A DNA stretch of 64,000 nt from Escherichia coli O157:H7. GTDB lineage: Bacteria; Pseudomonadota; Gammaproteobacteria; Enterobacterales; Enterobacteriaceae. Under the pieces are notes generated by a model that had not been told where the DNA came from, did not search any database, and saw only the letters and a program-made list of their open reading frames with translations. The DNA lies in assembly GCF_013167455.1 (NCBI RefSeq), contig NZ_CP038328.1. One strand, written 5' to 3'. Position numbers and translations under genes: made by a program. Positions within the stretch are counted from its first letter, which is position 1. Every line of letters starts with the position of its first letter. This document shows, in pieces, positions 18,626 through 56,871 of the stretch.

Positions 18626-19293
18626 TCCTTCCTCAATCTTGAGTAACCCCGTCGTTGAAGGGTTACTCAATTCATCCTGATTATACGCACTGTCATGGTG
18701 CAACTGCTTCAAATTAAAACTCTGGTCTGACTTCAAATAATTATCATATTATTTATTTGCGTAACGGGATATCAGAAAAAGATATTTACCCCATTAATTT
18801 ATTAGGATGTTTACATCGGATTTGTGATTAAGCGTGGTATTATTTATTAGCGAAACGTTTCTCTCTTGATTTTTTTTGCTTATTCATCAATTTTTCTTAT
18901 TTTAAATTTCCAATTCCTTTGGGATTGACTTCTCTTTGGGGTGATTGAGAGCCGTTAACTGCCTGTTTTATGAGAAAAAGTGATATAACTTTTTATTCAT
19001 TGCATAGCAGAAAATGTGATATTGCACGCACTATGTAATAACTTCTCCCACTGACCTGGAACAACTGAACTTATTGAACTATGTTAGAAACTACGTCAGT
19101 TTAAGTATCTGCGGAACTGACAAGGTTAAGCACAATGATATATCGGCGCGTATTCCGTTGCATAAGTGTGCAAAAAAAGTGGAAGACGTATCGAGATTTG
19201 TGCGTCTGATCGAGACATGTTTAAAAATGGCTTGCCATAATTAACGTTGTATGTGATAACAGATTTCGGGTTAAACGAGGTACAGTTCTGTTT

Positions 19294-30719: not shown

Positions 30720-32081
30720 TTACTTCTCCAGTTGGCGTAATATCTTATTAACTTTATCAAAAGTTTCCTGATATTCCGCTTCTTCCTGGCTATCGGCGAC
30801 AATTCCACCTCCCGCAGAGCAGTATATTTGTCCGTTAATGGCAGTCAGCGTGCGGATAGTAATGCTGGTATCCATGTTGCCGCAAAAGCTCAAATAGCCA
30901 ATGCTGCCGCACCAGGCATTACGTCGCTGCGGTTCCAGTTCGTCGATAATTTCCATAGCCCGTACTTTCGGAGCCCCGGTTATTGAGCCACCAGGAAAAG
31001 CTGCGCGCAGCAGATCGCTGGCGTGTAACTGTTCTGGTAGTTGCGCCGTTATGGTGCTGACCAGATGATGCACGGCAGGGAAGGGTTCCACCACGAACAG
31101 CTCTGGTACTTTTACCGAACCTGCTACGGCAACACGACCGATATCATTACGCATTAAATCGACAATCATCAGATTTTCGGCACGATCTTTCGCTGAGTTC
31201 GCCAGTTTTTCTGCTTGTTTGCTATCTTCCTGAGGAGCGGGCAGGCGTGGTAGCGTGCCTTTAATCGGGCGGGTCTGGATTTCACTATTATCACAAAGAA
31301 TAAACCGCTCTGGCGAAAGGCTTAAAATTGCACCCTGTTCAAGACGTAAAAAAGCGCTAAATGGCGCGCGGTTGGCCTGATTAAGCTGAAGGAATGCCTG
31401 CCATTCATCGCCAGAATAGGTCGCATGAAAACGCTGGGCGAGATTCACCTGATAGCAATCACCGCTGTGCAGATATTCCTGTACCCGGCGAAATTTTTCG
31501 CCGTACTGCTCGCGGGTCATATTGGATTGCCAGTCGGAAGTGAGCGTGAAATCTTCCTGCGGTGAGAATTGCTGGCTTTCCAGCCAGGCCCGACGGGCAT
31601 TGACATCATTATGACTCAGCAAAGAAACTGTATGACGCTGGTGGTCGACAATGAGCGCCCAATCGTAGATACCCACTGCCATATCCGGCAGAACGATATC
31701 TTGTTCCGCAATTTCTGGCAGTGACTCAAAACGGCGGCCCAGATCGTAGCCAAACAACCCCAGTGCGCCGCCCTGAAATGGCAAATCTTCGTTATGCGTT
31801 GGGCGAATGTCTGCGCGATCCAGCACCTGCTGGAGCACCTGTAGCGGGTCATCAGTGGTCGTTGTGCGTTTTTCGCTTTCACTAACAACGGTTTCTTTAC
31901 CTAAAGTGGTTAAAGTGCAAATCGGATCGGCGACCACAATATCAAAGCGGCTATACGGATGATCGGCATAGCCGGAGTGTAAAAGCATCGCCCACGGCAG
32001 GTGGCTTAAGCGGGAGAAATAAAATTCAGCGGCGTCCTGACGCCAGGGTAAAGTAATCACAGCGGGAGATAACGTCTTCAT
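30720..32081 (-). CDS. pabB: Aminodeoxychorismate synthase component I
   Basis: 453 aa chorismate-binding enzyme; 3 nt upstream of nudL. Confidence 0.95.
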   Translation of the reverse strand: MKTLSPAVITLPWRQDAAEFYFSRLSHLPWAMLLHSGYADHPYSRFDIVVADPICTLTTLGKETVVSESEKRTTTTDDPLQVLQQVLDRADIRPTHNEDLPFQGGALGLFGYDLGRRFESLPEIAEQDIVLPDMAVGIYDWALIVDHQRHTVSLLSHNDVNARRAWLESQQFSPQEDFTLTSDWQSNMTREQYGEKFRRVQEYLHSGDCYQVNLAQRFHATYSGDEWQAFLQLNQANRAPFSAFLRLEQGAILSLSPERFILCDNSEIQTRPIKGTLPRLPAPQEDSKQAEKLANSAKDRAENLMIVDLMRNDIGRVAVAGSVKVPELFVVEPFPAVHHLVSTITAQLPEQLHASDLLRAAFPGGSITGAPKVRAMEIIDELEPQRRNAWCGSIGYLSFCGNMDTSITIRTLTAINGQIYCSAGGGIVADSQEEAEYQETFDKVNKILRQLEK

Positions 32082-32154
32082 CAGTCCTGACTCTACTGGC
32101 TATGTGCCGGGTAGCATGAAATAATTAGCGCCAACAATTTAGCAGGAGTTAACA

Positions 32155-32334
32155 ATGTTTGCAGGTTTACCTTCACTCACCCATGAACAGCAGCAAAAAG
32201 CTGTCGAGCGGATCCAGGAACTGATGGCACAAGGGATGAGCAGCGGCCAGGCAATCGCGCTGGTGGCAGAAGAGCTGCGTGCCAACCACTCCGGCGAGCG
32301 AATCGTGGCGCGTTTTGAGGATGAAGACGAGTAA
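32155..32334 (+). CDS. yoaH: UPF0181 small protein YoaH (59 aa)
   Basis: Not in ORF track (<60 aa); read directly: [64 protein letters not shown] Shine-Dalgarno 7 nt upstream. Confidence 0.8.
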
Positions 32335-32453
32335 CACACTAATCCGTATCGATTTCGTTATAGAAGCTGATGATTATTTGATTGTGAGAAAAAGGACGCT
32401 TTTTATATGTGATTAAAAGCGTCCTGACCCATTTATGCTGATATAAATTTAAC

Positions 32454-32753
32454 TCAGACCAGTGCTTTTAGTTCTTCCTGCATATATGTTGAAAAGTACT
32501 CAGGATTTTTAATCACAGAGCGTTCACCTGTCTCCATTTTTTTTGCCCATCCAACCATTTTTTCCGTGAACCCAGGGTTCCAGCCTTCCTGGTCAGCTCG
32601 CGCCGTAATATCAGCGGCACTCGCGGGTACTCCCAGTTCTTTTAAATATTTAAAGATTCCCTTCGCCGTGCTTTCATTCATCGAACTTGGTGTTGGCGCT
32701 GATACATCCATGGCACCAATGAAATCCAGGGCTTTATCTATTACAGCAGGCAT
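32454..32753 (-). CDS. yoaC: DUF1889-family protein YoaC
   Basis: Track ORF 119 aa; start set at internal ATG 32753 (MPAVIDKALDF...) for the recalled 99 aa. Confidence 0.7.
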   Translation of the reverse strand: MPAVIDKALDFIGAMDVSAPTPSSMNESTAKGIFKYLKELGVPASAADITARADQEGWNPGFTEKMVGWAKKMETGERSVIKNPEYFSTYMQEELKALV

Positions 32754-33174
32754 ATTCTTATCCTTAAAATTAACCATGTTATCGATAAGGCTATATATGA
32801 CCTTAATTTGCATCTAATATCAAAGGGATTATAACGATATGGCACGAGTTAACCTGTTGATATTCAGGTGTTTTAAAGGTAGCAGCTCATGGTGTGTTAT
32901 CCAGTAAGATGGAGAAAATTAACGGTCAGTCCGCACGCTATAACCAGATTGTTCAGCTAAGAAAGAAAACCAGAGTTGCTAATCAAAGGGCGAACACAAC
33001 GGCATGGTTATGTTTATTTATATAGTTAGTTTTATAGATAAAATTGAAATTATAAAAATAAATAATGAATTAGCAGAAGCATCAACAGTAATATCTTATT
33101 CTCTGGTCGATTTATGTATAACCGACCAGTATTATCGATAAATTATCGTCTGACTTATTTTGCTTCGATAAAGC

Positions 33175-33519
33175 TTACACCGCAGCCACAATCTTAATTT
33201 CAACTTTATACTTCGGGTTCATCAAACCCGCTTGTACCGTGCAGCGCACCGGCGCATGACCCGCGACAACCCAGGCATCCCACGCTTTATTCATCGCCGC
33301 GAAGTCGTTTTTATCGGCCAGGAAAATGGTGGCATCCAGAATGCTCGATTTATTGCTGCCCTGTTTTTCCAGCACGGCGTCAATCTGCGCCAGGGTGTTG
33401 GCGGTTTGCTCAAAGGCATCGGCGTCGAGGTTTTCCGGTACACCAGTGTAGTAGAGCGTGTTGTTGTGGATTACTACATCAGACCAGCGGGCTTCAGCAT
33501 CGATACGAACGATAGTCAT
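33175..33519 (-). CDS. yoaB: RidA/YjgF-family protein YoaB
   Basis: Track ORF trimmed to ATG 33519 (MTIVRIDAEARW..., 114 aa). Confidence 0.85.
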   Translation of the reverse strand: MTIVRIDAEARWSDVVIHNNTLYYTGVPENLDADAFEQTANTLAQIDAVLEKQGSNKSSILDATIFLADKNDFAAMNKAWDAWVVAGHAPVRCTVQAGLMNPKYKVEIKIVAAV

Positions 33520-33650
33520 CATTTTATCCTCATTATCCTTCCATTTTCGTGCTGCAAAGACTGCCACAATGTGAGGTCGCCGTCACCACTTCAACTGGCG
33601 AAAGCGCCCTCATCCTGACATAATCCCTGTTCAAATCAACAGGGGGTAGT

Positions 33651-35561
33651 GTGACGGACGATTTTGCACCAGACGGTCAGCTGGCGAAAGCGATACCAGG
33701 CTTTAAGCCGCGAGAACCACAGCGACAGATGGCGGTAGCCGTCACCCAGGCGATAGAAAAAGGCCAGCCGCTGGTGGTGGAAGCAGGAACCGGTACGGGC
33801 AAAACCTACGCTTACCTGGCCCCTGCGCTGCGGGCGAAAAAGAAAGTCATTATCTCGACCGGCTCAAAAGCGTTGCAGGATCAGCTCTATAGCCGCGATT
33901 TGCCGACGGTCTCAAAGGCGTTGAAATACACGGGCAACGTGGCGTTGCTGAAAGGGCGCTCAAACTACCTCTGCCTCGAACGTCTCGAACAGCAGGCGCT
34001 GGCGGGGGGCGATCTTCCGGTACAAATATTAAGCGATGTGATCCTGCTGCGCTCCTGGTCTAATCAAACAGTCGATGGTGATATCAGCACCTGCGTCAGC
34101 GTGGCGGAAGATTCGCAGGCGTGGCCGCTGGTCACCAGCACCAACGACAACTGTCTTGGCAGCGACTGCCCGATGTATAAAGATTGCTTTGTGGTCAAAG
34201 CACGTAAAAAAGCGATGGACGCCGATGTGGTGGTGGTAAACCATCATCTCTTTCTGGCGGATATGGTGGTTAAAGAGAGTGGATTTGGCGAGTTGATCCC
34301 GGAAGCGGACGTCATGATCTTCGACGAAGCCCACCAGCTACCGGACATTGCCAGCCAGTATTTTGGTCAGTCACTCTCCAGTCGACAACTGCTCGACCTG
34401 GCAAAAGACATCACCATCGCCTACCGCACCGAATTAAAAGACACCCAGCAGTTACAAAAGTGCGCTGATCGTCTTGCCCAGAGTGCGCAGGATTTTCGTC
34501 TGCAACTCGGTGAACCAGGTTATCGCGGTAACCTGCGTGAGCTGTTAGCTAATCCGCAAATTCAGCGGGCATTTTTACTGCTCGATGACACCCTGGAACT
34601 TTGTTATGACGTGGCGAAACTGTCACTGGGGCGTTCCGCCTTGCTGGATGCGGCATTTGAGCGCGCCACGTTGTATCGCACACGGCTGAAGCGGCTAAAA
34701 GAGATCAATCAGCCGGGCTACAGCTACTGGTACGAATGCACTTCGCGCCATTTTACTCTGGCTCTCACGCCGCTCAGCGTGGCGGATAAATTCAAAGAGT
34801 TAATGGCGCAAAAGCCCGGTAGCTGGATCTTCACCTCAGCAACGCTGTCGGTAAACGACGATCTGCATCATTTCACCTCGCGGCTTGGGATAGAACAGGC
34901 GGAGTCGTTGCTATTGCCAAGCCCGTTTGATTACAGCCGCCAGGCGTTACTCTGTGTGCCGCGCAACCTGCCGCAAACCAATCAACCGGGTTCCGCGCGG
35001 CAACTGGCGGCTATGCTGCGCCCGATCATCGAAGCTAACAACGGTCGCTGTTTTATGCTTTGTACCTCGCACGCCATGATGCGCGATCTGGCCGAGCAGT
35101 TCCGCGCTACCATGACGCTTCCCGTATTATTGCAGGGGGAAACCAGCAAAGGGCAACTGTTGCAGCAATTTGTCAGTGCCGGTAACGCGCTTCTTGTGGC
35201 AACCAGTAGTTTCTGGGAGGGGGTGGACGTGCGTGGCGATACATTGTCATTGGTGATTATCGACAAATTGCCGTTTACCTCGCCTGATGATCCATTGTTA
35301 AAAGCGCGCATGGAAGATTGCCGTTTGCGCGGTGGCGACCCGTTCGATGAAGTACAACTGCCGGATGCGGTGATTACTCTCAAGCAGGGAGTCGGGCGAC
35401 TGATTCGCGACGCCGACGATCGCGGGGTTTTGGTAATTTGTGACAATCGGCTGGTGATGCGTCCTTACGGCGCGACGTTTCTCGCCAGTCTGCCGCCCGC
35501 GCCACGCACCCGTGACATTGCCCGTGCGGTTCGTTTCCTTGCGATACCATCCTCCAGGTAA
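33651..35561 (+). CDS. yoaA: DinG-family ATP-dependent DNA helicase YoaA
   Basis: 636 aa; Walker A AGTGTGKT, DEAH-like FDEAHQL, Fe-S cysteines (CLGSDCPMYKDC). Confidence 0.9.
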   Translation: MTDDFAPDGQLAKAIPGFKPREPQRQMAVAVTQAIEKGQPLVVEAGTGTGKTYAYLAPALRAKKKVIISTGSKALQDQLYSRDLPTVSKALKYTGNVALLKGRSNYLCLERLEQQALAGGDLPVQILSDVILLRSWSNQTVDGDISTCVSVAEDSQAWPLVTSTNDNCLGSDCPMYKDCFVVKARKKAMDADVVVVNHHLFLADMVVKESGFGELIPEADVMIFDEAHQLPDIASQYFGQSLSSRQLLDLAKDITIAYRTELKDTQQLQKCADRLAQSAQDFRLQLGEPGYRGNLRELLANPQIQRAFLLLDDTLELCYDVAKLSLGRSALLDAAFERATLYRTRLKRLKEINQPGYSYWYECTSRHFTLALTPLSVADKFKELMAQKPGSWIFTSATLSVNDDLHHFTSRLGIEQAESLLLPSPFDYSRQALLCVPRNLPQTNQPGSARQLAAMLRPIIEANNGRCFMLCTSHAMMRDLAEQFRATMTLPVLLQGETSKGQLLQQFVSAGNALLVATSSFWEGVDVRGDTLSLVIIDKLPFTSPDDPLLKARMEDCRLRGGDPFDEVQLPDAVITLKQGVGRLIRDADDRGVLVICDNRLVMRPYGATFLASLPPAPRTRDIARAVRFLAIPSSR

Positions 35562-55249: not shown

Positions 55250-56593
55250 TTAAATATGATGAATAATCACTTTGTTGCCCCCCTCGCTTTTCGCTTCGCG
55301 TAAGGCTTTATCTGCTTCCGTCATGACAAGCGAGATATTACGCGTGTCACCCGTTGAAAAAACTGTGCCAATACTGATGGTCATTTGTTCAGGAACATCA
55401 TATCTGTTACTAAAGCCGGTCAGGAGTTCGACATTTTTACGCATACGTTCCGCAATGATTTTTGCCTGGGCACTATTGAGTTCGGTAAATAGCAAGCCAA
55501 ACACCTCACCCTCCAGTCGCGCTAAAATATCATCGGGGCGGATGCTTTGCTGGATAATATCGACAATTGAAACCAGCACTTTATCACCCACACGATGTCC
55601 CCATTGGGCATTGATGCGTTTGAACTGATTAATATCAACCAGCATGACACAGAAGTCCTTAACAACAGGTCGCGACAATAATGACTCTACGCTGTTGAAA
55701 AAGTAGCGCCGATTATAAATATTGGTCAGCACATCATGAACTGCCAGTTTGCTGGAGAGTTGCAGCTCCTGAAAAATGTTATAAATCAGAAAAGACACAA
55801 CAAACAGTTTACTGGAGACTTCAATCCCGCGACTGATATACCAGATGGTATAATTATACTCATCCAGAGTCAGTAGAAGTAAGTTGCAGCATAGCGATGC
55901 CAGACATAATAATGCTATTAACGGCCATAGTTCGCTGGCTAATCGTGTACGCATGATAATAAAGAACAGTAAAAATGCCCACAGACAAACCAATATTTTT
56001 GTATAGTTGATTCCCCAGGTCGCAGTATGATTGTCCGGACAGTAATCGACGACATACAAAGAATAGTCAGCGTTATAACTGCTCAGATTGTGTGCCAGAA
56101 GGGGAAAAACTAAAAAAGGGATCAGCGCCAGCAACAGAATGCCAGTTTTTTTCTTATTGTTGTCAAGGATGTTGTCTTTTCCATAACAAAAGAGCGCCAG
56201 CGAGGTTAAACAAATAAAACTGAGTTGGCGGAAAATATAGAAAATAGAAACATCATTCGACTTTGTCTGGATCAGTGTACTGCCGTTAATTGGTTTATGG
56301 ATAATTACAATGGTTTCAACTAAATAGATAAGGCCACTTAAAAATGCAAGGCTTAAAATGAGTGTTGGTAAAATTTGTTTGTTAGTGAAATATTTCATTA
56401 ACATGAAAAGAAAAATGACGGCGTTAAGGAAAAACAAAGCCACAACAACCATCAGGTAATTCATCTGTGGGATGAGTTTTACATTTGTGTTTTCGTTATA
56501 TAAGGTAGTAATGCAAAATAAAATTAACGTCAGCAATAAACTGAAAATAAAAAAGCTTTGAGCTTTTAATTTTTGTGTACCCATAGAAACCAT
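55250..56593 (-). CDS. cdgI: Degenerate-GGDEF membrane protein CdgI (YeaI); 447 aa from the first ATG
   Basis: Eight predicted TM helices followed by a GGDEF-like domain whose signature is EGEVF; the frame is open for about 70 codons upstream with no ATG, GTG or TTG, and the ATG at 56593 has a poor Shine-Dalgarno. Confidence 0.75.
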   Translation of the reverse strand: MVSMGTQKLKAQSFFIFSLLLTLILFCITTLYNENTNVKLIPQMNYLMVVVALFFLNAVIFLFMLMKYFTNKQILPTLILSLAFLSGLIYLVETIVIIHKPINGSTLIQTKSNDVSIFYIFRQLSFICLTSLALFCYGKDNILDNNKKKTGILLLALIPFLVFPLLAHNLSSYNADYSLYVVDYCPDNHTATWGINYTKILVCLWAFLLFFIIMRTRLASELWPLIALLCLASLCCNLLLLTLDEYNYTIWYISRGIEVSSKLFVVSFLIYNIFQELQLSSKLAVHDVLTNIYNRRYFFNSVESLLSRPVVKDFCVMLVDINQFKRINAQWGHRVGDKVLVSIVDIIQQSIRPDDILARLEGEVFGLLFTELNSAQAKIIAERMRKNVELLTGFSNRYDVPEQMTISIGTVFSTGDTRNISLVMTEADKALREAKSEGGNKVIIHHI

Positions 56594-56871
56594 AAAAAGG
56601 AGAGCAATGTGAGTGCTGGATTTTATTGATGGCAGAGATATATAGTTTTGACCAGGATCAATTTTCGTTAACGATAAAAAATATTTAAAGAATAACCCCA
56701 GGGAAATACGTGTTGACAGAATAATTTTTCCGAATGATTGTTTTCTGGAACTAAATTGTGTAAAGGTTATGCTGTCATATTTAAAGCGATTGTAAGCTAA
56801 TGTATGTAATAAATGAGATAACTTACAGTGAGCTAAAAATCAGCCAGGCGATAATGACCCGGCTGATAGTT

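Follow-up and report, generated by a model that had tools for sequence, protein, structure and literature searches.

The AT-rich yoaB-yoaC gap of Escherichia coli O157:H7 as a yoaC control region with a putative cluster of H-NS-type sites

The high-affinity sites of the nucleoid protein H-NS share the motif tCGATAAATT and are found in clusters where the DNA is AT-rich and often acquired (Lang et al. 2007, PMC2094087), their type example being the negative regulatory element of proU. The LysR-type regulator YhaJ recognizes a TCA-N7-TGA box within T-N11-A at its targets yqjF, yhaK, yhhW and ybiJ (Palevsky 2016, Connolly 2019). The yoaC gene, of unknown function and with boric-acid sensitivity as its reported phenotype (PMC11502571), is one of the five YhaJ targets that chromatin immunoprecipitation with sequencing (ChIP-seq) found in common between enterohaemorrhagic (EHEC) and uropathogenic (UPEC) E. 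coli (Connolly et al. 2019, PMC6765310). In a K-12 study using the exonuclease version of the method (ChIP-exo), another LysR-type protein, YeiE, was bound upstream of the site of RNA polymerase at yoaC, a position that served as an example of upstream activation (Gao et al. 2018, PMC6237786). Here we analyze the DNA upstream of yoaC in E. coli O157:H7, that is, the intergenic gap between yoaB and yoaC, within a stretch of 64,000 nucleotides that we call the window and to which all coordinates refer.

The gap had been pointed out from the sequence alone. This original prediction described an AT-rich region without any open reading frame (ORF) of note, in which a perfect 10-bp palindrome at 33132-33141 is accompanied by a direct ATTATCG repeat, and it suggested a candidate protein-binding site. 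The description is accurate. The gap measures 421 bp and contains 32.5% GC (67.5% AT) inside, against about 50-55% GC in its flanks; the palindrome reads TTATCGATAA; the repeat lies where it was placed; and the two ORFs of 43 and 45 amino acids are not conserved. A second copy of the palindrome, identical to the first and absent from the original prediction, lies next to yoaC. The elements involved, in the order in which they are discussed, are:

32754-33174, no strand: yoaB-yoaC intergenic gap, 421 bp, 32.5% GC
33132-33141, no strand: distal TTATCGATAA, in the yoaB 3' untranslated region (UTR), 34 nt past the stop codon and 2 nt ahead of the hairpin described below
33131-33148, plus strand: ATTATCG direct repeat, with units at 33131-33137 and 33142-33148, 11 bp apart
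32779-32788, no strand: proximal TTATCGATAA, 26 bp before the ATG of yoaC, covering about +1 to +10 of the predicted promoter
33032-33041: TTATAGATAA, a 9/10 relative of the palindrome
33112-33121, no strand: TTATGTATAA, a relative with 8/10 matches that lies in the loop of the hairpin and has this form in O157 only
33135-33144, plus strand: TCGATAAATT, identical at 10/10 positions to the high-affinity consensus of H-NS, made up of the distal palindrome and its 3' flank

Both copies of TTATCGATAA present in the window lie in the gap (2 seen, 0.08 expected), which also holds four of the six TTATNNATAA matches of the window. The significance of these words was evaluated against 5000 dinucleotide-preserving shuffles of the gap. 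Since a shuffled gap contains on average 0.84 perfect 10-bp palindromes of any kind, a single copy is unremarkable. The same 10-bp palindrome occurs twice in 0.4% of the shuffles, and none of the 5000 reaches the observed numbers of TTATNNATAA (4, with 0.097 expected) or of CGATAA/TTATCG (6, with 0.38 expected, a 16-fold excess). The CGATAA-type word family is thus truly over-represented in the gap, and CGATAA is the core of the H-NS high-affinity motif. The motif comparison with known regulator sites that had been proposed as a check indeed retrieved an exact H-NS consensus and no canonical YhaJ box. TCGATAAATT is the only exact match to the H-NS consensus in the window and, with 12.9 bits, also its highest score on a matrix derived from the 11 sites that Lang et al. 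footprinted (PMC2094087). With a threshold of at least 7 bits, this matrix finds 12 hits in the 421-bp gap versus 226 in the 64 kb (about 1.5 per 421 bp), which makes the gap the densest cluster of the window, above the other AT-rich patches. Two other strongly AT-rich patches are found at about 18800-19200 (35% GC) and 56400-56800 (31.5% GC). The consensus sequences of Fur, DnaA boxes, SlyA, MqsA, FNR/CRP and the LacI family were compared with the gap informally and by eye, and none fitted.

The gap resembles described H-NS nucleation sites (PMC2094087) in several respects: the exact consensus with its central T-A step, the AT content of the surroundings (about 67%), the cluster of further motifs, the location on a lineage-specific islet and the presence of sites on both sides of the promoter. 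We therefore read the gap as a probable control region of yoaC and the palindrome as best placed within a cluster of H-NS-type sites, a tentative reading to which we assign a probability of about 0.42. Given the motif match, the history of the islet and the base composition, nucleation by a nucleoid protein would be the most economical explanation for the word family. In this scenario, H-NS (or StpA) would nucleate at the distal consensus site as well as at weaker sites elsewhere in the gap, one of them the proximal palindrome, located at the predicted transcription start, and would then spread or bridge over the AT-rich DNA, dampening yoaC and spurious promoters. The LysR-type proteins found in the distal half would counteract H-NS and activate yoaC. 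Seen from yoaB, the gap would then consist of a 3' UTR with a conserved hairpin, a fast-evolving, LysR-bound stretch of about 70% AT, the core promoter and a 5' UTR that travels with the gene.

Several observations weigh against this reading, some of which also set the gap apart from the known nucleation sites. The gene is expressed: its protein and mRNA are easy to detect, and a 2-fold rise is seen in stationary phase, so that any silencing could only be partial. The proximal palindrome is a weak match, with only 7.6 bits on the H-NS matrix, and the matrix itself was built on 11 sites and inherently favors AT-rich DNA. It is from the motifs that we infer H-NS at this locus, as our literature search retrieved no H-NS occupancy or hns-dependent expression linked to yoaC. 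The identical pair of palindromes, so infrequent among the shuffles, is not specifically predicted by a model of degenerate sites. Regarding the proposed counteracting proteins, yoaC is missing from those yhaJ differential-expression tables that were searched, where no change of yoaC in a yhaJ mutant is reported.

The conservation of the palindromes was studied at three scales. Within Escherichia, TTATCGATAA is found at both sites in E. coli proper, and in no other lineage of the genus are both copies perfect. In E. albertii the equivalents are TTATCGAAAA (distal) and TTATCGATCA (proximal); the cryptic clades and E. whittamii have TTATCTAAAA or TTATCGAAAA at the distal site and TTATTGTTCA at the proximal one; and Escherichia sp. 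MOD1-EC7003 has ACTTGATAA and TTATTGATTA, respectively. In total, both palindromes are degenerate in five other Escherichia lineages. Outside the genus, the palindrome is absent upstream of yoaC from the 14 loci of three genera (Citrobacter, Buttiauxella and Lelliottia), the proximal equivalent being unrelated sequence there, and TTATNNATAA does not occur upstream of yoaC in any non-E. coli locus. Among E. coli, the two copies behave differently. All of 11 diverse strains have the same proximal copy, while three of them, including CFT073, carry TTATCGACAA in place of the distal one. Among 5,426 complete genomes, the proximal 36-mer is identical in 5,379, the distal 55-mer with the perfect palindrome in 4,255 (about 78%) and the variant 55-mer with TTATCGACAA in at least 835 (at least 15%). 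Counted per 100 bp in the 11 strains, single-nucleotide polymorphisms (SNPs) are densest in the middle 211 bp (11.8), followed by the distal 83 bp (6.0) and the proximal 127 bp (3.9). Since the palindrome is degenerate or absent in the related genomes, the conserved-operator reading fails, and judging from this distribution TTATCGATAA is an E. coli-specific word. Lineage specificity of both copies and polymorphism of the distal one would be expected of degenerate sites for nucleoid proteins rather than of a dedicated operator.

The published YhaJ data allow the binding to be located within the gap. In the table of EHEC peaks, yoaC comes fourth, with shape scores of 10.4 and 21.1 and p = 1.7e-99; in UPEC CFT073 the scores are 7.2 and 2.3 and the centers 2045445 and 2045463 (PMC6765310, supplementary information), between the end of yoaB at 2045383 and the start of yoaC at 2045805. 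Transferred to the window, these data give:

33095-33117, no strand: YhaJ peak centers (CFT073 at 33113 and 33095; EHEC at about 33112, from the motif offset)
33032-33047, plus strand: TTATAGATAAAATTGA, the YhaJ motif called by Connolly et al., 65-66 bp from the peak center

The peak centers thus coincide with the hairpin; the distal palindrome is 20-40 bp away and the ATG of yoaC 340-360 bp downstream, with a resolution of about ±90 bp, as the canonical yqjF and yhhW boxes are 81-93 bp off their reported centers. The suggestion of a protein-binding site therefore stands for the gap, which is bound by YhaJ in ChIP-seq and by YeiE in ChIP-exo. For the palindrome it fails on conservation, and the distal copy is imperfect in CFT073 despite the peak in that strain. 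The yoaC region shares with the YhaJ targets its occupancy, seen in both EHEC and UPEC, and a second LysR-type protein, YeiE, also binds upstream of the gene. Unlike at the known YhaJ targets, the binding is far from the usual position at -65 of a proximal promoter, and the called motif is a match to a half-site. TTATAGATAAAATTGA starts with the 9/10 copy of the palindrome, is polymorphic in three of the 11 strains and reaches 4.1 bits on a symmetric matrix made from 15 canonical boxes, on which real sites score 9.6-17.6 bits. On the same matrix the best box of the gap has 5.1 bits and the frames through the palindromes 0.3-3.6, and TCA-N7-TGA is absent both from the gap and from the upstream regions of all the yoaC orthologues. 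The YhaJ motif called at yoaC is weak, and the lack of a canonical box fits low-specificity binding of YhaJ to AT-rich DNA, as at other EHEC targets of YhaJ that the authors of that study linked to H-NS, among them ler, fimS, gadX and nleA (PMC6765310). In the window as a whole, the best canonical YhaJ-box match is TCAAAGGCGTTGA (13.8 bits), at 33912-33924 inside yoaA; it is about 800 bp from the reported peak center, beyond the limits of the reported peak, and no separate peak was reported for it.

A further resemblance concerns the OxyR-bound phase-variation operator of agn43/flu (and cah), which also contains words of the type TTATCGAT...ATCGATAA and whose cah versions are ChIP targets of YhaJ too. 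At flu the operator consists of an interrupted inverted repeat of 27 bp with three GATC Dam sites, unlike the yoaC palindromes, which have neither GATC nor a second half-repeat. Upstream of flu in K-12 (locus L037, 434-463), the OxyR-Dam operator reads TTATCGATCG-N7-CGATCGATAA. The proximal site of yoaC, TCGATAAGGCTAT, is similar to the right end of this operator, TCGATAAGCTAAT, a similarity that may be a coincidence.

Three other explanations have to be weighed. The palindromes and the TTATCGAT relatives could be non-canonical elements of YhaJ (or YeiE), which would account for a strong peak where there is no TCA-N7-TGA box. We consider this unlikely. The palindrome is even-centered and so does not suit the odd-centered T-N11-A boxes of LysR-type proteins, its right half-sites, set in the frame of the YhaJ box, score only 0.3 (distal) and 3.6 bits (proximal), and the proximal copy is outside the peak window of about 420 bp. 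CFT073, as said, has its peak with an imperfect distal copy. By our estimate, two independent loci with TTATCGAT among some 22 peaks do not clearly exceed what chance would give in AT-rich peak windows, and with centers up to about 90 bp off the known boxes of yqjF and yhhW, proximity to a peak means little. A related and still less probable idea is that the TTATCGAT(A/C) words represent a second, non-canonical mode of YhaJ, or perhaps of another LysR-type protein, common to yoaC and to the OxyR/Dam operators of cah/agn43. If this were true, it would explain several of the strongest YhaJ peaks that have no YhaJ box, and E. coli would have recruited yoaC into the YhaJ regulon via de novo sites after its split from E. 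albertii.

Alternatively, the palindromes could be chance products of mutation in unconstrained AT-rich DNA, in which only the hairpin and the promoter-proximal 125 bp would be functional. The frequency of perfect 10-bp palindromes in the shuffles speaks for it, and so does the fact that a single substitution separates each copy from its E. albertii state. The distal 83 bp have few variable sites, one of which falls inside the palindrome, the middle copy is polymorphic as well, and across genera the stretch occupied by the proximal palindrome is less conserved than any other from the -10 element to the invariant 5' UTR. Nevertheless, chance has difficulty with the rarity of the same palindrome twice, with word counts that none of the shuffles matches and with a region that is bound by proteins in experiments, so that we regard it as somewhat unlikely. 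A third possibility is that the pair of identical copies, found nowhere else in 64 kb, represents the operators of an E. coli-specific dimeric regulator, which would sit at the start of yoaC and 353 bp farther upstream and be joined in a repression loop. The proximal copy, at the predicted +1 to +10, has the classic position of a repressor site and is invariant in 5,379 genomes, and the centers of LacI/GalR-type operators resemble the central CG of the palindrome. Yet the dyad symmetry stops at 10 bp at both copies, short of the 14-20 bp of a typical operator, at least 15% of the genomes carry an imperfect distal copy, the sister species keep neither copy, and 353 bp correspond to 33.6 helical turns, which is out of phase. 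We know of no E. coli regulator whose consensus matches the palindrome, a full-text literature search for TTATCGATAA gave nothing beyond cloning primers and unrelated sequences, and no DNA-binding fold was found in the YoaC protein. Such an operator pair seems very improbable.

The history of the locus was reconstructed from one genome per species, which provided 19 yoaC loci. The gene lies between yoaB and yoaH in Escherichia only. In Buttiauxella it is found beside fis and dusB, in Citrobacter beside fimbrial or diol-dehydratase-reactivase-like genes, and in Lelliottia in a context unrelated to yoaB/yoaH. Only about 75 bp upstream of the ATG can be aligned across genera; the remaining 350 bp or so of the gap are specific to Escherichia, where the length of the gap varies from 271 to 473 bp. 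These differing contexts, together with the short upstream sequence that travels with the gene, point to yoaC being a small mobile islet with its own core promoter; on this comparative evidence it is a horizontally acquired, single-gene, AT-rich islet. In E. coli the locus is nearly universal, as a 1,114-bp query from yoaC to yoaB has matches in 5,425 of the 5,426 complete genomes, with 100% identity to strain PV15-279. Between yoaH and yoaC, E. coli has a remnant of about 25 codons (TLIRIDFVIEADDYL..., 32339-32416, plus strand) of a pentapeptide-repeat gene, and cryptic-clade Escherichia have an intact gene of this kind in the same place (150 amino acids, L004 2890-3342; Pfam Pentapeptide, E = 2.5e-20). 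The genes around the gap in O157 are:

30720-32081, minus strand: pabB
32155-32334, plus strand: yoaH
32454-32753, minus strand: yoaC, 99 amino acids, DUF1889
33175-33519, minus strand: yoaB, RidA/L-PSP family
33651-35561, plus strand: yoaA

Other identities for the gap were considered. It has no annotated feature in O157 or K-12, and an Rfam covariance-model scan of 32000-34000 gave no match at E <= 1. The 45-amino-acid ORF is frameshifted in three of the 11 strains, hence not conserved, and the 43-amino-acid ORF sits in the most variable stretch, with the highest SNP density. A gene remnant was sought by tblastn with all the neighboring ORFs from eight related loci, and nothing was found. 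An origin from a mobile element was rejected, as there were no phage matches and the sole "plasmid" matches were mislabelled chromosomes. A remnant of a miniature inverted-repeat transposable element or of an insertion sequence was likewise discarded: the similarity ends at the 10-mer, the sequence occupies a single place per genome, and no match was found in phages or true plasmids.

The remaining anatomy of the gap comprises predicted promoters, the 5' UTR block of yoaC, an inverted repeat, a fast-evolving middle stretch and a hairpin:

32795-32823, minus strand: predicted yoaC core promoter, with -35 TTGATA (32823-32818), a 17-18 bp spacer, -10 TCATAT/CATATA and a start at about 32788
32756-32775, minus strand: yoaC 5' UTR block GGTTAATTTTAAGGATAAGA, including the Shine-Dalgarno sequence, near-invariant in Escherichia, Citrobacter, Lelliottia and Buttiauxella
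32828-32833, minus strand: perfect TATAAT, invariant in seven Escherichia sequences, with a poor -35 (CAGGTT)
32852-32869, no strand: inverted repeat ACCTG-N8-CAGGT, with its center about 72 bp ahead of the predicted start of yoaC
32881-33091, no strand: fast-evolving AT-rich middle stretch, with 11.8 variable sites per 100 bp in the 11 strains, mostly deleted in Escherichia sp. MOD1-EC7003
33049-33085, minus strand: distal sigma70-like cluster, with TTGATG or CTGCTA, TATAAT at 33054-33049 and a predicted start at about 33042-33050, from consensus scoring only
33103-33129, minus strand: hairpin CTGGTCGGTT...AAATCGACCAG, 46 nt past the yoaB stop codon

The -35 and -10 regions of the predicted core promoter align in Escherichia and Citrobacter, and more loosely in Lelliottia and Buttiauxella. 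The combination TTGATA-17-TCATAT scores 8.1 and is not listed by a simple consensus scan. The perfect TATAAT at 32828-32833 may belong to a second, activator-dependent promoter. The repeat ACCTG-N8-CAGGT occupies a position typical of activators; it is Escherichia-specific and kept in most Escherichia, O157 having a private A in the spacer. The two top-scoring sigma70-like sites of the gap (33017-33044 and 33107-33135) are on the plus strand, opposite to yoaB and yoaC, and would fire towards the yoaB 3' end, antisense to it; the -10 of the second, TATTAT, overlaps the distal palindrome. The 5' UTR block is non-coding, as shown by an in-frame TAG in B. gaviniae and a 1-nt deletion in E. albertii, which also dismiss upstream-extended yoaC ORFs of 107 and 119 amino acids. 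It is conserved beyond the needs of a Shine-Dalgarno sequence and may be a translational control element.

At the other end of the gap, the yoaB hairpin is similar to the stem-loops of bacterial 3' UTRs, which act as terminators or stabilizers, both in its location and in a stem kept by compensatory changes. In nine Escherichia sequences, 98.4% of the cells of its 7-bp outer stem are paired. Two pairs show compensatory changes (GC to AU in one case and UA to CG, three times, in the other), and the pairing collapses when the partner columns are slid. Unlike in a canonical intrinsic terminator, no U-tract follows the stem, which is succeeded by AGAGAAUAAG, and a terminator scan found no terminator. 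The hairpin is thus a 3' stem-loop, which could serve in mRNA stabilization, as a processing site or in Rho-dependent termination.

The gap is the AT-rich control region of an acquired gene, ordinary in kind and recorded before in genome-wide studies of binding, and in that sense the finding matters little. What is new is the sequence-level anatomy of a regulatory region that had been flagged by ChIP studies yet left undissected. It provides a testable alternative to the YhaJ motif, namely H-NS nucleation and LysR-type counter-silencing on a small acquired islet. Once known, the control of yoaC could help to find the conditions in which the gene acts.
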